A stretch of DNA of 64,000 nucleotides from an uncultured Gammaproteobacteria bacterium (GCA_964634875.1 CAZWKA010000001.1:37600-101599), one strand, 5' to 3'. Shown: positions 784 to 10,396, counted from the first letter of the stretch. Made by a program: numbers and translations. The notes: a model not told the origin generated them from the letters alone.

Positions 784-3756
784 ATGCTGTATAACGCCAA
801 CAACGAAGAACAAGCAATCCTCAAATTTTGGGCAGAAAACAAGATTTTTGAGAAATCCATTTCCGAAAAATCGGCTGACAAGCCCTATGTTTTTTATGAC
901 GGCCCGCCGTTTGCTACTGGCACGCCGCACTATGGCCACTTTGTTTCATCGCTCATGAAAGACGTTGTGCCGCGCTTTTGGGCTATGAAGGGGTATTGCG
1001 TGGAACGCCGCTGGGGTTGGGATTGTCATGGGCTCCCGATTGAAAATATCGTGGAAAAAGAACTCGGTACCAAGAGTAAAAAAGAAATTGAAGCCTTGGG
1101 CGTCGCTAAATTCAATGAACTTTGTCGGTCGAAAGTGCTTGGTTATGTTGATGAGTGGAAAAAAACTATTACTCGTCTGGGTCGCTGGGTCGACATGGAC
1201 AATGCCTATCGCACCATGGACAAAGAGTATATGGAATCGGTCTGGTGGGTATTTAAACAGCTCTGGGATAAGGGGCTTATCTACGAAGATTATCGTTCCA
1301 TGTACATTTGTCCGCGCTGTGAAACTACCTTATCGCAGCAGGAAGTGAGTGAAGGTTATAAGGATGTTAAAGATATTTCGCTCTACGTAAAATTTGAGCT
1401 CACGAGCTATTCGCCGGAGATTTTTCAGCATGTCCCGAACGAACTCGACCGCAAATTCATGAGTGAACAGAAGGTGTATCTGGTCGCCTGGACCACGACA
1501 CCGTGGACACTCCCGGGTAACGTACTCCTTGCGGTGAATCCAGAAACGCTGTACACAATTTGCACCATTGAAAACGAAGCCGGTGTTTATATCATAGGCA
1601 AAGATCGGATTGCCGAGGTGCTCGAAAGCAAAAAATACACGGTCATTACCGACATTCCAGGATCGCTCCTTGCGGGTAGCGCATACGTTCCACTATTTCC
1701 GTATTACCAAGCTACGCCGAACGCTTTCCGTGTCGTTACCGCTGATTTTGTTACAACCGAAGACGGCAGTGGTGTGGTGCATATCGCCCCGGCGTTTGGC
1801 GACGATGACTTTAAAGTCGGCAAACGCGAAGGCTTGCCACTCGTACAGCATGTTGGTATGGACGGTCGCTTCAAACCAGAAGTTACTGATTTTGCAGGCC
1901 AAGAAGTGAAGCCGCGCTCAGACGACGACAAAGTTCGCTTGGCTACCGACATTGCTATTACCAAGTATTTGCAGGGTAAAGGTTCTTTTTTGGCGAAGAA
2001 AAATATTGTCCATAGTTATCCGCACTGCTGGCGCTGCGACACACCGCTCATCAATTATGCAACTTCGTCTTGGTTTGTAAAAGTAACTGCAGTTAAGGAA
2101 AAAGCCCTGGAATTGGCTAAAGAAATTAACTGGTCGCCAGAGCATATTAAAGAAGGACGCTTTGGTAAGTGGCTCGAAGGAGCCCGCGATTGGTCGATCT
2201 CTCGTCAGCGGTTTTGGGCAAGTGTTATGCCGATTTGGATGTGTGAAAATAAAGGTTCGTGCAGCGAAACAGTCGTTTTTGGTTCGGTTGTTGATTTAGA
2301 AGAAGCGAGCGGTCAGAAAATTGATGACCTGCATAAACACATCGTTGACTTGATTACATTCCCGTGTGCTAAATGCAGCGGTGTTATGAAACGCGTGCCC
2401 GATGTTATCGATACCTGGTTTGATTCCGGCTCCATGCCGTATGCCCAGGCACATTATCCGTTTGATAATAAAGCTAAATTTGAGGGTGGTTTTCCGGCAC
2501 AGTTTATTGCCGAAGGCCAGGATCAGACCCGTGCTTGGTTTTATTATCTGCATGTTTTATCAACGGCGCTTTTTGGAACGGTCGCATACAAAAATGTTAT
2601 TGTGAACGGTATCGTGCTGGCTGAAGACGGTAAGAAGATGAGTAAAAAACTGCAGAATTATCCTGATCCGAACATGCTGATCGAAAAATATGGTGCTGAT
2701 GCACTTCGCTACTACATTTTGAATTCCCCGGTCATGCATGCCGAGAGTCTTAATTTTTCGGAAGATGGTGTTAAAGAAATGTATAACAAGCTGATCAACA
2801 CTTTGTGGAATGTTTTTGAGTTCTACCAACTCTTTGCCAAAGACCTGCCAAGTAACAAGCCGTTCAAGTCTGCTCATGTTCTTGATCGGTGGGTAATGGC
2901 TAAACTCCACGAGACTGTTCGTGAGGTTACCGAAAATATGGAGCAGTATAATCTGGCCGAAGCAGCGCGTCCGATTATGGATTTTGTTACGGAACTCTCG
3001 CAGTGGTACGTTCGCCGTTCGCGTGAACGCGTGAAAGGGGTTGATGAAACAGATAAGCATCATGCATTGTACACACTGCGCGAAGTCTTGATTGTGGTGT
3101 CGAAATTACTGGCTCCGTTTACGCCGTTTATTGCTGAAAAAATGTATCAAGAACTTCGTTATGATGAAATTGGCGGCAAAGGCTGGGCTAAAGAAAGTGT
3201 TCACCTGGAACACTGGCCTGCGCTTCACGACGAACATCATGACCAGAGCGTACTTCAGGAAATGATCGCGGCTCGCAAGATCGTGGAACTGGGGCTTGCG
3301 CTCCGCGCTGAAACCGGGCTCAAGGTTCGCCAGCCACTGAACACACTAGCCATTAACAATGAACATTTGAGTCGGGAACTCCACACGATGATCGCCGAAG
3401 AGTTGAATGTAAAAAATATCGATGTTTGTGAAGTTTCTGCTGGTGATACTTGGAAACTCCGTGAAGACGGCGAGGTGAAGGTTTGGCTCGATACTGTGGT
3501 CGATGAAACGCTCAAAAAAGAAGGCTTGGTACGTGACGTAATCCGCGCAATTAACCAATACCGCAAAGAAAAAGGTTTTACGATTGAGGATCGGGTCTGT
3601 GTCTATTATGCCACCTCAAACGAGGAGTTGAAAAAAGTTTTTGTGGACTTTGCCGAACAGATTAAGTCAGCTGTGCTGGCTGACAGGCTCGAAACCGGGG
3701 ATAGTGGTGACGTTTCGACCGTGCCGGATTTGTTCTTATCGCTTGAAAAAATATAG
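784..3756 (+). CDS. ileS: Isoleucyl-tRNA synthetase (type 2, eukaryote/archaeal-like)
   Basis: 990 aa; HIGH-region PPFATGTPHYGH, KMSKS motif GKKMSKKLQNYPDP, editing and anticodon-binding regions typical of IleS. Confidence 0.95.
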   Translation: MLYNANNEEQAILKFWAENKIFEKSISEKSADKPYVFYDGPPFATGTPHYGHFVSSLMKDVVPRFWAMKGYCVERRWGWDCHGLPIENIVEKELGTKSKKEIEALGVAKFNELCRSKVLGYVDEWKKTITRLGRWVDMDNAYRTMDKEYMESVWWVFKQLWDKGLIYEDYRSMYICPRCETTLSQQEVSEGYKDVKDISLYVKFELTSYSPEIFQHVPNELDRKFMSEQKVYLVAWTTTPWTLPGNVLLAVNPETLYTICTIENEAGVYIIGKDRIAEVLESKKYTVITDIPGSLLAGSAYVPLFPYYQATPNAFRVVTADFVTTEDGSGVVHIAPAFGDDDFKVGKREGLPLVQHVGMDGRFKPEVTDFAGQEVKPRSDDDKVRLATDIAITKYLQGKGSFLAKKNIVHSYPHCWRCDTPLINYATSSWFVKVTAVKEKALELAKEINWSPEHIKEGRFGKWLEGARDWSISRQRFWASVMPIWMCENKGSCSETVVFGSVVDLEEASGQKIDDLHKHIVDLITFPCAKCSGVMKRVPDVIDTWFDSGSMPYAQAHYPFDNKAKFEGGFPAQFIAEGQDQTRAWFYYLHVLSTALFGTVAYKNVIVNGIVLAEDGKKMSKKLQNYPDPNMLIEKYGADALRYYILNSPVMHAESLNFSEDGVKEMYNKLINTLWNVFEFYQLFAKDLPSNKPFKSAHVLDRWVMAKLHETVREVTENMEQYNLAEAARPIMDFVTELSQWYVRRSRERVKGVDETDKHHALYTLREVLIVVSKLLAPFTPFIAEKMYQELRYDEIGGKGWAKESVHLEHWPALHDEHHDQSVLQEMIAARKIVELGLALRAETGLKVRQPLNTLAINNEHLSRELHTMIAEELNVKNIDVCEVSAGDTWKLREDGEVKVWLDTVVDETLKKEGLVRDVIRAINQYRKEKGFTIEDRVCVYYATSNEELKKVFVDFAEQIKSAVLADRLETGDSGDVSTVPDLFLSLEKI

Positions 3757-3851
3757 AATACTAATGCCTGGGTGTTCCTTGCGCGCGCAGGGATACGTTG
3801 AAAAGTAGGTTCAATTTTTAGCTATACATAGCAAAAAATTGCTTACAATTC

Positions 3852-3880
3852 TTGACAAGAAGCTGTGAATATAGTTAAAT
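3852..3880 (+). promoter_or_regulatory. sigma70-like promoter TTGACA-17nt-TTAAAT
   Basis: TTGACA 3852-3857, 17-nt spacer, TTAAAT 3875-3880, about 25 nt upstream of small ORF ATG. Confidence 0.4.
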
Positions 3881-3905
3881 ACAAACTTAATTGCTATCGG
3901 TTCAT

Positions 3906-3995
3906 ATGGAGTCTAGTTCACTGGACGACCCTGACCCTATCACAGTACAGCTGATCAGTCGGGGTAAGGAAACAAAAGATTTGCTTAACCCATAA
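3906..3995 (+). CDS. Unannotated 29-codon ORF (MESSSLDDPDPITVQLISRGKETKDLLNP): candidate leader/precursor peptide
   Basis: ATG..TAA in frame, absent from the 60-aa-minimum ORF track; sits between a good promoter and a terminator-like hairpin directly upstream of the ATP-grasp gene; no SD, but backbone genes here generally lack one. Confidence 0.3.
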   Translation: MESSSLDDPDPITVQLISRGKETKDLLNP

Positions 3996-4032
3996 CCCAA
4001 ACAGAGTTACCTGTTTGGGTTATTTATTTTTG
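3994..4032 (+). terminator. Intrinsic-terminator-like hairpin (possible attenuator) overlapping small-ORF stop codon
   Basis: AACCCAAACAG-agttac-CTGTTTGGGTT 11-bp perfect stem followed by ATTTATTTTTG. Confidence 0.5.
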
Positions 4033-4041
4033 TTAATTATT

Positions 4042-5319
4042 ATGGAGCGAGCGCTCAATGGTTCAACAGTGCTTTTGGTGCATGCCGGTTCATTAAGCAA
4101 GCAATTCATCCTCGAACGGGCGAAAGCGCTCGGTGTCCGCATCATTTGCTTGAACAAAAAAAAGGAAGCTTTTGCCGAGCCTTTTGTTGATCACTGGATT
4201 TTTGCTGACCTCAAAGACGAAACAAGCTGTTTTAAAAAAATTACAGAGTTTATCGTAGCTCACGCGGATATTAAAATTGATGGAGTAATTACCTTTTGGG
4301 ATGAATCCGTTGTTCTCGCCGCACACATCTCGGAACAATTTTGCTGGATAGGTATTTTGTCAAAAACAGCTGACCGGATTAAGAATAAATATGCTTTTAG
4401 GGATGCCTGCCAAACCGAGGGTATTCCCGCCCCACACCACCTCCTGCTCAATACCGAAGCTGACTTGGCGAAGGCTGATGCGGAGCTTGAATACCCAGTG
4501 GTGGTAAAACCGGTATACGGCGCCAGCAGTGCGTTTGTGGTACGCGCCGACAACCTTTCGGAATTAACGACTGTCTATAATGATCAAATTAAAAATATCC
4601 ATACGTTTTGGTTAGCACCAGAATGGAACAGTCTTCAGGTGTTGGTTGAAGAGTATATTGACGGCCAAGAAGTTGATATTGATATCCTGGTTCAGAACGG
4701 GGAAGTTAAATATATTTCGATTATTGATAATAAAGAAACCAACGAACCATTTTTTGTTGAAACAGGCTGGTCGTCTCCTTCGAGATTGGGAGCGAAAGAA
4801 CAAAAAGAACTGGAAGCGATGGCAGTTTTTACCCTGAAGGCGCTCAAGGTAGAGAATGGTTGCGTTCACTTTGAAGCGAAATATGGCAGCAAAGGTGCTG
4901 TACCGATTGAGATTAATTTGCGCATGGGCGGTGGAGAAGTGTACCTCTATTCCAAGCTCGTCTGGGGTGTTGATCTGGTTGAAAATGCCCTGAAGATTGC
5001 GCTCGGCCTGCCAGTTGTTATTGATAAGCCCGATAAACCGATCTGTCATCTGCTCTCGTATCGTTTTCTTCCGGAAAAAACCTGCAAACTGACTAAGCTC
5101 CGCGTTGATGAGGCGGTGTACGGTCAGTCCTCGGTAGTAAGTTTGTATTTTGAAAAACAAGTTGGCGATATTTTTCTAGCGCCGCCGGAAGGGTATGACC
5201 GCTGTATTGGTGTCATTACGGTAAAAGGTGAGAGCCATGTTGCCGCAGAAGAAAATTTGGCCAAAGCCCTAAAGTATATTAAATACGCCGTCGAACCACT
5301 TAATCACATCACTATTTAA
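4042..5319 (+). CDS. ATP-grasp domain ligase (L-amino-acid-ligase / carboxylate-amine ligase-like)
   Basis: ATP-grasp motifs VEEYIDGQEVDIDIL and IEINLRMGGGEV; about 425 aa from ATG 4042 (track ORF 4015 start overlaps the upstream hairpin). Confidence 0.8.
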   Translation: MERALNGSTVLLVHAGSLSKQFILERAKALGVRIICLNKKKEAFAEPFVDHWIFADLKDETSCFKKITEFIVAHADIKIDGVITFWDESVVLAAHISEQFCWIGILSKTADRIKNKYAFRDACQTEGIPAPHHLLLNTEADLAKADAELEYPVVVKPVYGASSAFVVRADNLSELTTVYNDQIKNIHTFWLAPEWNSLQVLVEEYIDGQEVDIDILVQNGEVKYISIIDNKETNEPFFVETGWSSPSRLGAKEQKELEAMAVFTLKALKVENGCVHFEAKYGSKGAVPIEINLRMGGGEVYLYSKLVWGVDLVENALKIALGLPVVIDKPDKPICHLLSYRFLPEKTCKLTKLRVDEAVYGQSSVVSLYFEKQVGDIFLAPPEGYDRCIGVITVKGESHVAAEENLAKALKYIKYAVEPLNHITI

Positions 5320-5329
5320 TACATCACGT

Positions 5330-6709
5330 ATGCATAAAAAGCAGGAAAAAATTTTAGATGTACGCGGTTCTTTTACCAAAGACGGTATTCGTATTATTGT
5401 TCGTGGGAAACGTTTTGATATTGCCTTTCCGGCGGCTATTTGGCAGAAAACACCGGCCGAAATCAAGCAGGTTTTACTTGAAAATTTAACCTTCGGTAAT
5501 ACCCACTTTTTGCCGGTGACGCTAGGGTATGATCGTATTAAATATAATATTCCACTGCCCCTCCTCGAGAGCCTCTTGTTTAGGAATCAGGCGGTATCTA
5601 TCGTAAAAGCAGAAGTGTACGACAAAGTGAAACCGGCTACGTATTTAAAAGCGTTCTTCAATACACAGTATGACTTTGCTCCCGGAGCCGGCGCACTGCC
5701 CTTTGGTCCGAAACGCCGTCAGTTCAAGAACAAAAAGCCAATTGCAATTTTACCATTTACTTTTGGTAAAGAAAGCTTGTTAACCTTTGCGCTCTGCCGT
5801 GAGCTTGGTATTAAACCTGTGCTTGTGTATTCCCAGGAACCTTCTTCGCCCTATGAAGAAACTTATAAGAAAAAACAGTTAGCGCTGTTCTCTAAAGAAT
5901 TCAAAGTTGATACTCATTTCGTAAAATACGAACCAGGTTTATTCCGCTACGATGTTGCCTTCAAAGAAAAACCAGGTACTGAAGTGGGTTGGGGGCTCCA
6001 AACCACGCTCCTGTCATGGCAGATGCTCCCTTTTGTTTTTGCCTACGGCGCCGAATATATTCTGTTTGGCAGCGAACACGCCAATAATGAGTATGAGATG
6101 AATGAAGATGGTTGGCGTGTACAGCTCTCCTACGATCAGAGCAGCTTCTTTACTATGGAGCAAGATCTGGCGGTGCGTACAGTTACGGAAGATAATTGCC
6201 GTGTCCGCACGAGTTTAGAACCAATGGAAGAAACATCTATTCTCTTCATGCTCCATACGCGCTATCCTGAAATTGGCAAATACCAGTTTTCTTGTACTGG
6301 CGAAAAACCGCTTCTCGCGGGTTCGCAGTGGTGCCATAACTGCTACAAGTGCTGGCGCATGTTCCTGATTGCCTGTGCAGTTGGTGTTGATCCGTATTCA
6401 TTTGGATTCAAGAAAGATATTTTGAATCAGACGGGAATCTTTACCAACTACTTTGGTGAAGATATCAAAAGCGGATCAAATAACGAATTAGATTTCTGTT
6501 TTTATATTCTTCACAAGAAGAATTGGCAGTCACCATATGTCGAGCTCTTCCGTAAAACAAAATTAGCTGGCCTAAAACCGTGGTCAGAATTTGTAAAAGA
6601 ATTTACAACGGTTCAACCGGAGCTTAACCTTCCTGCTGCCTACCGCAATACAATGATGAGTATCTTCAAAGAAGAGTTAAAAAATTTAAAGAAAATACTG
6701 CCTCGTTAG
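5330..6709 (+). CDS. QueC-superfamily (PP-loop-like, adenine nucleotide alpha-hydrolase) protein with degenerate P-loop and intact C-terminal Zn-binding Cys cluster; N-terminal 130-aa extension
   Basis: AILPFTFGKESLLTFAL aligns to QueC VVVFSGGQDSTTCL (SGGxDS degenerated); SC-x12-CHNCYKCWR matches QueC zinc motif C-x8-C-x2-C-x2-C-x-LR; 10-bp gap after ATP-grasp gene implies co-transcription. Confidence 0.5.
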   Translation: MHKKQEKILDVRGSFTKDGIRIIVRGKRFDIAFPAAIWQKTPAEIKQVLLENLTFGNTHFLPVTLGYDRIKYNIPLPLLESLLFRNQAVSIVKAEVYDKVKPATYLKAFFNTQYDFAPGAGALPFGPKRRQFKNKKPIAILPFTFGKESLLTFALCRELGIKPVLVYSQEPSSPYEETYKKKQLALFSKEFKVDTHFVKYEPGLFRYDVAFKEKPGTEVGWGLQTTLLSWQMLPFVFAYGAEYILFGSEHANNEYEMNEDGWRVQLSYDQSSFFTMEQDLAVRTVTEDNCRVRTSLEPMEETSILFMLHTRYPEIGKYQFSCTGEKPLLAGSQWCHNCYKCWRMFLIACAVGVDPYSFGFKKDILNQTGIFTNYFGEDIKSGSNNELDFCFYILHKKNWQSPYVELFRKTKLAGLKPWSEFVKEFTTVQPELNLPAAYRNTMMSIFKEELKNLKKILPR

Positions 6710-6793
6710 TAGAGCTAAGGTTGCAGGGTTTTGAGTTGACAGTCCAAACTTTTTGCTCTACAGTAGGGCATATTTATTGTACTTGATAATCAT

Positions 6794-7759
6794 ATGATGA
6801 GTGTAAAAAATGTCTTTGATCTTGGTGTAAAAATTGCTGTGTCGGCTGATCCGCGCGGGAGCAAGGGTGTCACCAAGTACCTCGAAACAATTAAACGCGA
6901 GTACGCTGAGATGAAAGAAAGCGATAAGAAGTATTTTGACATTTCTCGCCTCACAAATCCGTACCCGGACAGCTGTATCCATGTGGATGATGGATGTAAA
7001 GAAGTGAAGCGGGTTCTTGCTGGTATCGATATTGACGCTGGCGAGATCCTGTTAGCCAGCCAGTTGAACGAGCGTGGTAAGAAAATTGATCTCACGATTT
7101 CGCATCATCCGGTGGGCAATGCGCTTGCTGGTCTTCACGAGGTTATGGAGATGTCCACATCAATTTTTGAGAGCTTCGGTTTGCCGATTCATGTGGCCGA
7201 AAAAGTAATGGGGGATCGTATTAGCGAGGTTGGACGAAGCGTGCACCCCATTAACCATCATCGTGGCGTTGATATCGCCCGTATCTTGGGGATTAATTTC
7301 ATGAGCACGCACACGATTACTGATAATCTGGTCAACAAATTTTTGGAAGACCTTTTCAAAAAAGAAAAACCTGAAACCCTTGGTGAAATTATAGACCTCC
7401 TTATGGAGGTGCCTGAGTTCCAGGAAGCCCGCCGCCGCGGCGCGGGGCCTCGAATTGTTGCTGGAAATCGTAAAAAGAAAGTTGGTCGTTACCTGGTAGA
7501 AATGACCGGGGGCACGGAGCCACAGAGCCAGGTCTACGAAGAGTTCTCACGGATCGGTGTGAGTACGATGATTAGCATGCACATGCGAGAGGATGCTCTT
7601 AAAAAAGCTAATGAGCAGCATATGAATGTCGTTATTAGCGGGCACATGTCGTCTGATTCTGTTGGTATGAACCTGTTCCTCGATGAGCTCGAAAAGAAAG
7701 GGGTAGAGATTATTCCGTGCGGCGGACTCATCCGTGTAAGCCGGAATAAGAAACGGTAA
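6794..7759 (+). CDS. Nif3/YqfO family (GTP cyclohydrolase 1 type 2 homolog) dinuclear-metal protein
   Basis: 321 aa, conserved ISHHP motif and His/Glu metal ligands pattern of DUF34/NIF3. Confidence 0.75.
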   Translation: MMSVKNVFDLGVKIAVSADPRGSKGVTKYLETIKREYAEMKESDKKYFDISRLTNPYPDSCIHVDDGCKEVKRVLAGIDIDAGEILLASQLNERGKKIDLTISHHPVGNALAGLHEVMEMSTSIFESFGLPIHVAEKVMGDRISEVGRSVHPINHHRGVDIARILGINFMSTHTITDNLVNKFLEDLFKKEKPETLGEIIDLLMEVPEFQEARRRGAGPRIVAGNRKKKVGRYLVEMTGGTEPQSQVYEEFSRIGVSTMISMHMREDALKKANEQHMNVVISGHMSSDSVGMNLFLDELEKKGVEIIPCGGLIRVSRNKKR

Positions 7760-7826
7760 ATTTTGTAATAAGTTTGTAGGTCAGTAAGTAGTTAACTATT
7801 TACTGACTACGTTACTAACGCGCTAC

Positions 7827-8423
7827 TTGCTAACTTACGTTATGATCTCGCTCCTCCAAGGAAAAATTATTGCCAACAACCAGGTTGAAGTTGTCCTCCT
7901 GACCTCTGGGGGAGTTGGCTATAAAATACTCATCAGCTTGCGCGCTGCTGAAAAATGCTCTGTCGGAAACGATGTGCTGCTCGAAACGTACTTGGTTGTA
8001 CGCGAAGATGCCTTGGAATTGTTTGGTTTTGAGAACGCCCGCGAGCGGGAATTGTTTAAGCATTTCTTGTCTGTAAGCGGTGTGGGGCCAAAGACGGCCC
8101 TGCACCTTTTGGCCTTGGGTTCGGTGGATGATATTACCCGAGCAGTTGGTCGCGGCGACGTAGCGTACCTCACCAAGGTTAGCGGGATTGGCAAAAAAAC
8201 AGCTGAACGTATCGTGGTTGACCTCAAGGCCAAACTGACCGGCGTGGAATCGTTTGACAATGCCGTGCTAGCGGATACCCCGGACAATGTTGGTGACGTT
8301 ATTGACGGGCTGATTGCTTTGGGCTACTCTGCGGGTGAGGCTCGGGAGGTAGCGAAAGGGCTCGATAGTAAGGGTAAAACAAGCGAACAGTTGTTGAAAG
8401 AAGCTTTACAGCGAATCAAATAA
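7827..8423 (+). CDS. ruvA: Holliday junction DNA helicase subunit RuvA
   Basis: OB-fold N-terminus, tandem HhH motifs (VSGVGPKTALHLL, VSGIGKKTAERIV), C-terminal domain; true start probably ATG at 7842. Confidence 0.9.
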   Translation: MLTYVMISLLQGKIIANNQVEVVLLTSGGVGYKILISLRAAEKCSVGNDVLLETYLVVREDALELFGFENARERELFKHFLSVSGVGPKTALHLLALGSVDDITRAVGRGDVAYLTKVSGIGKKTAERIVVDLKAKLTGVESFDNAVLADTPDNVGDVIDGLIALGYSAGEAREVAKGLDSKGKTSEQLLKEALQRIK

Positions 8424-8447
8424 GATTTATTTTTAATACTCAAACGT

Positions 8448-9197
8448 ATGGGGTTTCTCATCATTATCCCGCTCATTATCCTCCTCCTCGGCCTGCGTAT
8501 CGTCCAGCAGTACCAAAAAGGCGTCATCTTTCGCTTTGGTAAAATTGTCGGTATTAAAGAACCGGGTTTAAACTGGATCATCCCTATCGTTGACCAAATG
8601 CGAAAAGTCGATTTCCGTACAGTTACTTTGCCGATCCCGCCGCAAAAAATTATTACTAAAGACAACGTCTCGGTTGATGTTTCGGCCGTCGCTTACTACA
8701 AGATTGTTGATTCTATCAAAAGTATTGTTGGAATCGAAAACGTGATGAGCGCTATCAATCAGATTGCCCAAACGTCAGTGCGCAATATTGTCGGCAAGTT
8801 TCAGCTCGACGAAATTTTAAGTGAGCGCGAAACGATCAACAAAGAAATTACCGCCGTTCTCGACCACCATACCGAAAGCTGGGGGGTGCTTGTGTCTGTG
8901 GTAGAAATTAAAGACATTGAACTTCCAGAAGGCATGCAGCGTGCCATGGCGAAGCAAGCTGAGGCTGAACGCGAAAAACGCGCCAAGATCATTGCTGCGG
9001 AAGGTGAGTTCCTTTCAAGCCAAAAATTAGCGGATACCGCGGATATTATGGCTGCCCATCCTATTGCGCTTCAATTGCGTAATCTCCAGACCATGGCGGA
9101 AATTAGTATTGAAAAGAATTCCACCATTATTTTCCCGGCGCAGTTTATGAGTACGATTTCCGAGATAAAACAATTCATGCAATCGGAGCATAAATAA
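8448..9197 (+). CDS. SPFH/band-7 (stomatin/prohibitin-like) membrane protein
   Basis: N-terminal TM then SPFH core (VSVDVSAVAYYKIVD..., EAEREKRAKIIAAEGE). Confidence 0.85.
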   Translation: MGFLIIIPLIILLLGLRIVQQYQKGVIFRFGKIVGIKEPGLNWIIPIVDQMRKVDFRTVTLPIPPQKIITKDNVSVDVSAVAYYKIVDSIKSIVGIENVMSAINQIAQTSVRNIVGKFQLDEILSERETINKEITAVLDHHTESWGVLVSVVEIKDIELPEGMQRAMAKQAEAEREKRAKIIAAEGEFLSSQKLADTADIMAAHPIALQLRNLQTMAEISIEKNSTIIFPAQFMSTISEIKQFMQSEHK

Positions 9198-9216
9198 AAT
9201 TTGCTAAAATAAAAAC

Positions 9217-9692: not shown

Positions 9693-9805
9693 CTGGTGGG
9701 CGGGCAATTACTTCACCCTGCTACCCACAGACTCAGTAGGTTGAGTGTGTGGGTAGGGGCAGGGCGAGGCGGTGCTCGCGGGTGAGTAAGGACGAGAGTT
9801 GTTCG

Positions 9806-10192
9806 TCAGCGACGAGGGGCGTGCCAGATCTGCACGTGGCGGATCTGCTCGGTCCGGAGGCTCTGGTAGGCCTCGAAGGTGAGGTTGCGCTGCATGACCG
9901 TGATGATGGCCAGGGCGAGGAACAGCATCGCGAGCAGGAGCGTGAGCAGGTTGAGGTGGGTCTTCATCTGGCGGCCCTGGGTGGTCAGGGCGCTGACCTG
10001 GGTGAACAGGGTGTTGACCTGTGTCGTCTTGGTCGCGAGGTCGGCCTCGAGGGCGGCGATGCGGCGCTGCTCGGGGGTGGGAGGCTCGGGCGGCGTCAGC
10101 TTGTGCTCGCCGGTGTCCTTGGGCTCCGGCGGCGACAGGTCGATTGTGTCGGGGGCCTTGGTTCCGGGGTTTCCGCTCTGGTCGTTCATCAC
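9806..10192 (-). CDS. GC-rich Pro-rich / coiled-coil / C-terminal TM-anchored hypothetical protein
   Basis: High-GC ORF with SD (CAGGAGctacagtgATG); PPEPKDT..PPEPPTPEQ low-complexity N-term, heptad-like middle, hydrophobic LLTLLLAMLFLALAIITVM. Confidence 0.5.
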   Translation of the reverse strand: MMNDQSGNPGTKAPDTIDLSPPEPKDTGEHKLTPPEPPTPEQRRIAALEADLATKTTQVNTLFTQVSALTTQGRQMKTHLNLLTLLLAMLFLALAIITVMQRNLTFEAYQSLRTEQIRHVQIWHAPRR

Positions 10193-10396
10193 TGTAGCTC
10201 CTGTTTGCAGTTGGGGGCAGCAGAGGCTCTAATAAGATATGTTTTATTAGAACTTTCGCTGCCCAACGAGCTTACAAGAACGTGTTACTATAGCACAAAA
10301 CAAGGTTTTCGTCAAGGGGTGTAGGGTATTTTTTGGCTAAAATAAGGCAAAAAATAAAAAACAGCCCTGTGTTTGAGCTGTCTTTTGAGCGATTCC

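Follow-up and report, generated by a model that had tools for sequence, protein, structure and literature searches.

The stretch of DNA analyzed here, 64,000 nucleotides (nt) long (GCA_964634875.1, CAZWKA010000001.1:37600-101599; hereafter the window, in whose coordinates features are given unless another locus is named), carries a short leader directly 5' of two genes, one for an ATP-grasp ligase and one for a QueC-like PP-loop protein. Judged from sequence comparison, we consider this leader to be, with fair probability, a leader-peptide transcription attenuator that controls the two-gene operon. The leader opens with a promoter on the + strand (3852-3880), in which a -35 hexamer TTGACA (3852-3857) and a -10 hexamer TTAAAT (3875-3880) are separated by 17 nt, both read directly from the sequence. 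A + strand open reading frame (ORF) of 29 codons plus TAA follows (3906-3995; ATG at 3906, TAA at 3993-3995). It encodes MESSSLDDPDPITVQLISRGKETKDLLNP, and its DDPDP codons (3924-3938, +; residues 7-11) form a patch of acidic residues and proline (DE/P). The leader TAA is situated inside the 5' arm of an intrinsic-terminator hairpin (3992-4023, +) with a perfect stem of 13 bp (5' arm 3992-4004, 6-nt loop 4005-4010, 3' arm 4011-4023), and the T-rich tract TTATTTTTGTT (4024-4034, +; 9 of 11 T) comes directly 3' of the stem. After a 7-nt spacer, and 18 nt from the hairpin, the ATP-grasp gene of the L-amino-acid-ligase type begins (4042-5319, +; ATG at 4042; 425 aa), and 10 nt past its stop codon starts the QueC-like PP-loop gene (5330-6709, +; 459 aa). 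The upstream neighbor is the gene for isoleucyl-tRNA synthetase (IleRS; 784-3756; TIGR00392, 5.6e-275). Since homologues of the 459-aa protein come from Patescibacteria, we assign the window to a bacterium belonging to the Candidate Phyla Radiation (CPR), closest to metagenome-assembled genomes of Magasanikbacteria at 74% identity.

The 29-codon ORF is also predicted by a gene caller on an identical Logan contig (L001), and the hairpin (-18.6 kcal/mol, z = -5.4 versus shuffles) is detected by a terminator scan as well. Its stem motif AACCCA...TGGGTT has a single site in the 64-kb window (in two overlapping registers), where 0.15 are expected by chance. The initial annotation had already pointed out the promoter, the 29-codon ORF with its stop codon in a hairpin, and the T-tract behind it, all of which can be read in the sequence; only the stem, given there as 11 bp, is longer. 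TTGACA-17-TTAAAT is not listed by the promoter scan, whose rule demands an A at position 2 of the -10 hexamer (here T). The case for this promoter therefore rests on conservation, and TTGACA with its 17-nt spacer is indeed conserved in the four close relatives discussed below. Between 3880 and the ATP-grasp ATG (4042), the promoter scan finds no promoter-like site on the + strand. The elements are thus arranged in the general order of an attenuator, namely promoter, short leader ORF, intrinsic terminator, and structural gene, with no promoter in between.

Conservation of the leader among close and distant relatives

The close clade is represented by five loci, namely the window, L002, L003, L005, and L096 (L001 is a duplicate contig of the window, with an identical Logan stretch). 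The four relatives share TTGACA at 17 nt from a -10 hexamer, an ORF of 26-37 codons, a hairpin with a T-run, and the first operon gene 12-50 nt further on. L002 and L003, with a QueC-like protein that is 74% identical in both cases, have TTGACA-17-TAAACT with the peptide MSLHNSEEPDPGTCSYENKITKEFTITQRVRVAVGLF (stop codon 4 nt past the hairpin) and TTGACA-17-TACACT with MEASYSKEEPEPNSTIHHRNQPALFL (stop codon touching the hairpin), respectively. L096 (56% identity) has TTGACA-17-TACTAT and MDNIITSSQSDDPEPIKNNSNVIKNTRT, its stop codon being located in a different hairpin, within the loop. L005 (55%) has TTGACA-17-CATAAT and MEIVITITASEADETDSRELIKNNLPKSTG, and its ATAACCCA...TGGGTTAT hairpin is the same, with the TAA in its 5' arm. 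The gene order of the window is shared by L002, L003, and L096, whereas the leader of L005 precedes a different first gene.

The window, L002, L003, and L005 share a conserved outer stem, ATAACCCA/TGGGTTAT. The inner stem changes in both arms with pairing kept, reading AAACAG/CTGTTT, AGCG/CGTT, ATGAAT/ATTCTT, and AAGTAG/TACTTT in the same order. Among 83 loci, the stem motif is confined to L001, L002, L003, and L005. A generic repeated terminator can be ruled out, the motif being unique in 64 kb and present in just four of the 83 loci.

The peptide, in turn, shows a pattern of its own. The patch is encoded by GAC GAC CCT GAC CCT in the window (DDPDP), GAC GAT CCG GAA CCA in L096 (DDPEP), GAG GAG CCC GAT CCT in L002 (EEPDP), and GAA GAG CCG GAG CCC in L003 (EEPEP). 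All 10 first and second codon positions are invariant across these four loci and all five third positions vary; that the five variable sites out of 15 should all be third positions has a chance of 1 in 3003 if they fell at random. Because variation is confined to third codon positions, this is the signature of selection acting on the leader peptide and not on an RNA motif. A nucleotide-level motif, GANGANCCNGANCC, was considered as well and dropped. It is present in the three closest loci alone, and the wider conservation is therefore at the peptide level. A metagenome scan with the QueC-like protein returned eight loci, all at 53% identity or less, and thus no new close relatives. In L082, L083, L084, L085, and L097, the upstream sequence is too short for a leader to show.

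In distant lineages, where the QueC-like proteins are 41-50% identical, the hairpin and the nucleotide sequence are unrelated to those of the window, and it is the acidic/proline short-ORF design that recurs. Here, an ORF whose N-terminus is rich in acidic residues and proline precedes a hairpin with a T-run, and shortly after these an ATP-grasp(-Ddl) gene begins. The leaders in question read MDSDDQPPGAF.. (L008), MEIIKEEDQPPGN.. with the patch MEIIKEEDQPPG.. (L011), MHTSSLEEPPSIVLN (L015), MAESPLATTPIEESEEPPQ.. with the patch ..EESEEPPQ.. (L007), MAYTDPPRSLGEDPLP.. (L013; MAYTDPP..EDPLP..), MDPMGDDDDSN.. (L087), MEIEESDSDPGG.. (L088), and MEIIDCEPEPDPNPELKFKI with the patch MEIIDCEPEPDPNPE.. 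(L089), the start codons of some of them being ambiguous.

Enrichment of this design was scored with a published definition of ribosome-destabilizing DE/P segments, that is, at least four of six residues being D, E, or P near the N-terminus (bioRxiv 10.1101/2021.02.02.429294). We applied this rule to the first 20 residues, with the added demand of at least one P and at least one D or E, to short ORFs within a limit of 200 nt upstream in 40 dereplicated regions. A DE/P short ORF was found in 10/40 of these regions versus 7/305 upstream of other long ORFs in the same loci. As further controls, 1/40 reverse complements qualified, and 200 shuffles gave a mean of 0.59 and a maximum of 3. Three more leaders qualify outside the 40, namely those of the window itself (duplicate of L001), L007 (ORF start just past 200 nt), and L096 (added later). 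In the window, it is LDDPDP (residues 6-11, five of six D/E/P) that falls under the published definition.

Hairpin geometry, proposed mechanism, and rival readings

The position of the leader stop codon was compared in 15 leaders with a clear hairpin, made up of 14 of the 16 leaders examined with RNAfold (L007 has an unclear terminator and L024 none) plus L096. The bulged stems of L002, L003, and L087 are missed by a simple hairpin scan and were recovered by RNAfold. In all 15 leaders, the stop codon is found between 14 nt 5' of the hairpin and a position past it. It is located inside the hairpin in the window, L005, L017, L018, L088, and L096, before it in L003 (0-1 nt), L089 (4 nt), L013 and L087 (9 nt each), and L015 (14 nt), and past it in L002 and L019. 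In L008 and L011, the ORF crosses the hairpin, and its stop codon overlaps the start codon of the enzyme as ATGA. The leader ORFs thus end within a ribosome footprint of the hairpin, or beyond, as in attenuators of the pyrBI type. At L024:3522-3606, the ATP-grasp-Ddl protein carries a patch NNDDPPDSG (MKNSQPTSNNDDPPDSGKT..) as an in-frame fusion at its N-terminus, and the terminator is absent; it looks as if the leader peptide has been absorbed into the enzyme. Terminator masking, ATGA coupling, and in-frame fusion would agree in one respect, namely that enzyme output requires a ribosome to get past the patch.

No antiterminator appeared in constrained folds in which the motif region was forced to be single-stranded. 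Because the terminator stays the predicted fold in 10/10 leaders with the motif covered, an antiterminator of the trp type is not predicted. A weak GGGUAAGG/CUUAACCC pairing, seen by eye in the window, was rejected since it does not touch the 13-bp stem. In Rfam searches, the whole window remained below the gathering thresholds and the leader gave just noise at E <= 10; no riboswitch, T-box, or small RNA was found.

In the mechanism that we propose, transcription would start about 7 nt past TTAAAT, and a ribosome would start on the 29-codon ORF and meet DDPDP at codons 7-11 while the nascent chain is still short. The acidic/proline patch would then slow or destabilize this ribosome. If the ribosome passes the patch close behind RNA polymerase, it would arrive at the stop codon, which is part of the terminator's 5' arm, and, while terminating, block the hairpin, so that the polymerase would read on into the operon (ON). 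If it is stalled or dropped at the patch, the hairpin would form and transcription would end at the T-tract (OFF). Operon output would, in short, report ribosome performance on DE/P sequences. The ability to translate such sequences depends, in other bacteria, on Mg2+, polyamines, elongation factor P (EF-P), and ABC-F factors, and any of these would be a candidate signal. Translation of the leader ORF, stalling or abortion at the patch, the polarity of the switch, and the nature of its signal are what we infer from the comparison of loci. Translation finds indirect support in the codon-periodic pattern of the motif, in the ATGA overlaps of L008 and L011, and in the enrichment for the peptide motif.

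Both halves of this proposal have precedents. Acidic residues with interspersed prolines destabilize or stall bacterial ribosomes while the exit tunnel is nearly empty, and the 'EPDP' motif of MgtL aborts translation and serves as a Mg2+ sensor, the risk being highest near the N-terminus (bioRxiv 10.1101/2021.02.02.429294; PMC11282234). A ribosome close behind RNA polymerase, on the other hand, prevents the hairpins of intrinsic terminators, and a stall motif placed before the pyrL terminator gave 26-32-fold more termination when stalling was unrelieved (PMC5021804). A leader-peptide attenuator had been one of the two patterns suggested in the initial annotation, and it gains support from the conserved ORF, promoter, and hairpin, from a stop codon that tracks the hairpin, and from the lack of an intervening promoter in the scan.

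Several points weigh against the attenuator. Translation of the leader, stalling or drop-off at DDPDP, and read-through are drawn from comparative and predicted evidence, and masking of the hairpin presupposes that transcription and translation are coupled sufficiently tightly in Patescibacteria. The motif was noticed before it was tested, though the threshold had been published independently. Conservation of the small ORF and hairpin in related genomes, a check proposed at the outset, is borne out by L002, L003, L005, L096, and the distant CPR loci, whereas about 70% of the operon-bearing loci are without a DE/P short ORF. L004, for instance, has a plain TTGACA-17-TATAAT promoter upstream, and L014, L016, L020, and others are alike. 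In L017, L018, and L019, a short ORF with a terminator is present and the motif is absent, and the acidic patches of L005 and L087 contain little or no proline. The stop codon of L015, 14 nt 5' of the hairpin, is at the edge of the ribosome footprint. A weak point, finally, is the absence of a Shine-Dalgarno sequence before the leader ATG. As just 11/38 long ORFs of the window carry a Shine-Dalgarno-like motif, and the ATP-grasp and QueC-like genes are themselves without one, this absence is uninformative.

The same anatomy would serve a classic amino acid attenuator of the 'hungry-codon' kind. Here, the Asp, Glu, and Pro codons would sense charged tRNA, and scarcity would lead to a stall, to formation of the terminator, and to switching off of an amino-acid-consuming ligase operon. 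It fits that the codon run of the patch stands for no more than two or three amino acids, that an amino-acid ligase is encoded downstream, and that CPR bacteria depend on scavenged amino acids. However, Asp and Glu swap freely among close relatives, which is unexpected for a sensor of the charging of a single tRNA family, other patches have Gln, Gly, or Ser interspersed (DQPPG, DSDPGG), and known amino acid attenuators use an antiterminator, none of which is predicted here; we regard this option as unlikely, if worth keeping in view. The other pattern suggested in the initial annotation was a precursor peptide, either of a ribosomally synthesized and post-translationally modified peptide (RiPP) or of the microcin C kind, which would be modified by one or both enzymes while a leaky terminator sets a high ratio of peptide to enzyme. 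The mccA-mccB operon, with a peptide gene and then a leaky terminator, offers a precedent, and the small ORF is conserved directly 5' of two carboxylate-activating enzymes. QueC-family enzymes are, moreover, able to modify proteins (Cap9, QatC; bioRxiv 10.1101/2025.04.06.647259; PMC13279940), and one locus (L086) has a gene for a C39 peptidase nearby. Yet only the N-terminal patch is conserved, the peptides being 15-37 residues long with unrelated C-termini, and the stop position tracks the hairpin and not a core peptide. The ORFs of L008 and L011 continue across the terminator as far as the ATGA overlap, the patch of L024 belongs to the enzyme itself, and the peptide is missing from the majority of loci with both enzymes, the close relative L004 among them. 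The ATP-grasp protein belongs to the class of free-amino-acid ligases and not to the graspetide/RimK type, and it forms, in the majority of relatives, a fusion with a Ddl-like module. The neighbors are dipeptide-epimerase-like, LD-carboxypeptidase, and decarboxylase genes, with no exporter or leader peptidase among them: a Pfam scan of positions 3757-9200 of the window shows no transporter or peptidase gene, and a C39 domain gene is present in L086 alone. PADLOC returned no matches either. All this disfavors a precursor peptide, which we hold to be improbable.

Two further explanations would do without leader translation altogether. The hairpin might simply end the IleRS transcript or a short non-coding RNA, with the 29-codon ORF as a chance frame. 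IleRS does end 236 nt 5' of the hairpin without a T-tract terminator of its own, the leader ORF has no Shine-Dalgarno sequence, and chance small ORFs are common. Against this stand the conserved promoter between IleRS and the hairpin, the codon-periodic substitution in the motif, and the enrichment of DE/P short ORFs over controls; the design also occurs where the upstream gene is not IleRS (in L008, an integrase gene on the other strand), and 3' of the hairpin there is no room for an operon promoter. The absence of any regulatory link is thus quite improbable. A structured cis-acting RNA, that is, a riboswitch or protein-binding leader with the terminator as expression platform and translation irrelevant, would be consistent with a leader (about 105 nt from predicted start to hairpin) whose fold is somewhat more stable than that of shuffles (z = -2.8, -2.2, and -1.8). 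Rfam finds no match to it even permissively, though, the predicted helices 5' of the terminator are not common to the window, L002, and L003, and it is the peptide that is conserved, with free third positions and with distant leaders that have its motif in common but no nucleotide similarity. This makes an RNA sensor very improbable indeed.

The attenuator reading can also be carried further, at a steep cost in probability. In this highly speculative extension, to which we give very little credence, the acidic/proline leader would act as a sensor of ribosome integrity across CPR phyla (Mg2+, polyamine, EF-P, or ABC-F status), and the pathway that it gates would feed back on translation. This pathway would comprise the L-amino acid ligase(-Ddl) enzyme and the QueC-like enzyme as an adenylating one, in fuller operons together with a dipeptide-epimerase-like protein, a second ATP-grasp enzyme, and a pyridoxal phosphate (PLP)-dependent decarboxylase. 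Its product could be a cationic or peptide compound stabilizing ribosomes, or the modification of a translation factor, which would close the loop between sensor and product.

Relation to known leader systems

The proposed attenuator shares its geometry with pyrBI of Escherichia coli, whose leader ORF pyrL likewise extends as far as, or across, an intrinsic terminator that immediately precedes the structural genes (PMC5021804). In pyrBI, a ribosome close behind RNA polymerase blocks the hairpin, as we propose here, and an antiterminator is not needed. The variable differs, being polymerase pausing at low UTP in pyrBI and an N-terminal acidic/proline patch in the window, and the downstream genes are unrelated to pyrimidine synthesis.

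The sensor, for its part, recalls MgtL, the leader of mgtA in Salmonella and E. coli. Both are short leaders with an N-terminal motif (MEPDPT.. in MgtL as compared with ..DDPDP.., ..EEPEP.., and ..EPEPDPNPE.. here), and the continuity of translation is used as signal in MgtL, as we propose for the window (bioRxiv 10.1101/2021.02.02.429294; PMC11282234). Unlike MgtL, which works through alternative stem-loops and Rho, the leader described here has an intrinsic terminator with a T-tract and no alternative fold. Drop-off turns mgtA on, whereas the predicted polarity here is the opposite. The motif occupies residues 2-5 in MgtL and residues 2-17 here, and the regulated genes encode ligases instead of a Mg2+ transporter. 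The switch would thus resemble pyrBI in its geometry and MgtL in its sensor, as a member of neither.

An engineered polyproline stall comes closest to the combination of both, with a proline stall site placed 5' of an intrinsic terminator within an ORF (Elgamal, Artsimovitch and Ibba 2016, PMC5021804). That stall uncouples the ribosome from polymerase, and it is without EF-P that termination goes up 26-32-fold (PMC5021804). It is, however, an artificial E. coli reporter with PPPPPP, whereas the leaders considered here would be natural, conserved equivalents in CPR bacteria, of mixed acidic/proline composition. The trp/his type of attenuator differs in two respects: the 10 leaders folded have no antiterminator hairpin, and a codon run for a single amino acid is replaced by interchanging Asp and Glu with Gln, Gly, and Ser interspersed.

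Searches of the literature turned up neither this leader, nor leader-peptide attenuation in Patescibacteria, nor the pairing of QueC-like and ATP-grasp genes. Regulation in Patescibacteria is almost unexplored. If true, the reading proposed here would provide a natural switch that joins a ribosome-faltering motif of the MgtL type to terminator masking of the pyrBI type, which have so far been separate, the sole joint example found being the engineered reporter. The leader design would also offer a handle on transcription-translation coupling in ultra-small cells.

The two enzymes and their gene neighborhood

The ATP-grasp assignment of the initial annotation holds, the 425-aa protein matching PF13535 (ATP-grasp_4) at 2e-22. 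In Pfam, it also shows ATPgrasp_N and, at 27.6 bits versus a cut-off of 29.4, LAL_C2, a domain that is clearly above its cut-off in relatives of the protein. Its closest solved relatives are the L-amino acid ligases BL00235 (3vot, 2.4e-21) and 4wd3, followed by the alanine-anticapsin ligase BacD. By its predicted activity, it is an ATP-grasp enzyme of the L-amino-acid-ligase type. With BL00235, 4wd3, BacD, and DdaF, it shares the combination of ATPgrasp_N and LAL_C2, and these are the best solved homologues. It differs from them by its low identity, and most of its relatives are fused to a D-Ala-D-Ala-ligase-like module that is missing in the window.

The second protein had been called QueC-like, which stands at the level of fold and not at that of sequence. 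The 459-aa protein has no match in Pfam or NCBIfam even at E = 10. Some of its relatives give sub-threshold QueC matches (E 0.001-0.006), and a profile of the family searched against the sequences of the Protein Data Bank (PDB) hit just one spurious repeat protein. An AlphaFold2 model built on an alignment of 28 members reached a predicted local distance difference test score (pLDDT) of 92.8 and a predicted template modeling score (pTM) of 0.92, and its best Foldseek matches are QatC, QueC, and Cap9, with the QueC core fold present. In the 28 sequences, the PP-loop reads [ST]-F-G-K-[ED]-S-L, a variant of SGGxDS in which G146, K147, S149, and L150 are invariant. So are C322, C335, C338, and C341, which correspond to the putative four-cysteine zinc site of QueC (C...CxxCxxC).

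In several respects, the protein departs from QueC, Cap9, and QatC (PF06508). It is below every Pfam threshold, [ST]FGK[ED]S replaces SGGxDS, and the chain is extended at both ends, by an N-terminal domain (about 120 residues) and a helical C-terminal one (about 110 residues). The canonical substrate motifs YxQxHxxE, VPxRN, and YPDC, which bind 7-carboxy-7-deazaguanine (motifs from PMC13329287), are absent from the family consensus upon inspection of the 28-sequence alignment. Its neighbors are ATP-grasp ligases, dipeptide-epimerase-like genes, NIF3, and others, and no queD, queE, tgt, or defense genes were seen among them. Based on the model, the protein is QueC-like at fold level and not a QueC orthologue, because of the altered loop, the missing substrate motifs, the extra domains, and the lack of 7-deazaguanine or defense neighbors. 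A link of QueC-like proteins to defense, raised in the initial annotation, does exist in the literature, as QueC-family enzymes (Cap9, QatC) conjugate 7-deazaguanine to proteins in type IV cyclic-oligonucleotide-based antiphage signaling systems (CBASS) and in QatABCD (bioRxiv 10.1101/2025.04.06.647259; PMC13279940). It does not extend to this locus, where the PADLOC defense models match neither enzyme and the canonical substrate motifs are absent.

A profile search brought up 182 clusters (at 50% identity) of the QueC-like family at E <= 1e-30. Bacterial homologues come from Magasanikbacteria, Peregrinibacteria, Kerfeldbacteria, Komeilibacteria, Falkowbacteria, and other Patescibacteria, and archaeal ones from Woesearchaeota, Aenigmatarchaeota, Iainarchaeia, and Bathyarchaeia. 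This is thus an uncharacterized family with a QueC-like fold, of about 180 clusters, common to CPR bacteria, DPANN, and other archaea. For the distant members P0083, P0084, P0087, and P0100, matches to PF26298 are available precomputed; the local Pfam scan does not report this family.

The association of the two genes is a general one. Among the 73 loci with a readable upstream gene, a Ddl-type ATP-grasp domain is present in the immediate upstream neighbor of the QueC-like gene 44 times, and LAL_C2 30 times. The two-gene synteny, another check proposed at the outset, is thereby found in at least 44/73 loci, and the pair is a unit. In most CPR loci, the partner is a fusion of 800-821 aa that combines the L-amino-acid-ligase type with a D-Ala-D-Ala-ligase-like module (e.g., L008:3560-6004, L086:2442-4907, and L087:3592-5994). 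Stand-alone ATP-grasp proteins of 423-429 aa occur, among the loci examined, in the window (with L001), L002, L003, and L096 alone, and a detached Ddl-like half was not found within the 64-kb window. In L004 (4403-5980) and L005 (1675-3276), a protein of 525-533 aa takes the place of the ATP-grasp protein directly 5' of the QueC-like gene. The 525-aa protein of L004/L005 shows no similarity in Pfam, in the PDB, or to ATP-grasp, and the gene in L005 is located behind the same TAACCCA hairpin leader. L017:5995-8746 has overlapping tandem QueC-like paralogues (5995-7386 and 7370-8746) and then an MR_MLE (dipeptide-epimerase-like) gene.

Downstream of the QueC-like gene (65 loci), MR_MLE genes of the dipeptide-epimerase-like kind are found in 13 cases and a further ATP-grasp gene in nine. 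Rarer neighbors are ThiF (4), HEPN (3), lysine-2,3-aminomutase/radical S-adenosylmethionine proteins (2), and PLP decarboxylase (2), and LD-carboxypeptidase is also met. Going by the neighboring genes alone, the enzymes probably build or amidate a small D-amino-acid-containing peptide, possibly related to the cell wall. The steady partnership with ATP-grasp enzymes of the L-amino-acid-ligase/Ddl type points to an undescribed pathway of amino acid or peptide metabolism.

In the window, the gene 3' of the pair is NIF3-like (6794-7759). The initial annotation was right about its family. Because an 84-nt gap with a promoter-like site (TTGACA-17-TACAGT; 6736-6764, +; promoter scan, 10/12 matches) precedes it, the NIF3-like gene is probably transcribed on its own and the regulated unit probably consists of the two genes alone, with the site at 6736-6764 as its likely 3' boundary.

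Some minor observations concern the remainder of the window. A 191-aa ORF (9749-10324) between an SPFH gene and gatB has no match in Pfam or NCBIfam. Many start codons of the window are preceded by ..CGT, ..CCT, or ..CAT, giving ..CGT ATG, ..CCT ATG, or ..CAT ATG. Together with the Shine-Dalgarno-like motifs in just 11/38 long ORFs, this suggests that translation initiation in this genome is mostly independent of Shine-Dalgarno sequences. Just past the IleRS stop codon, a GC-rich near-palindrome, CCTTGCGCGCGCAGGG (3766-3795), is found that lacks a T-tract and may serve as a weak terminator of IleRS or as a binding site.

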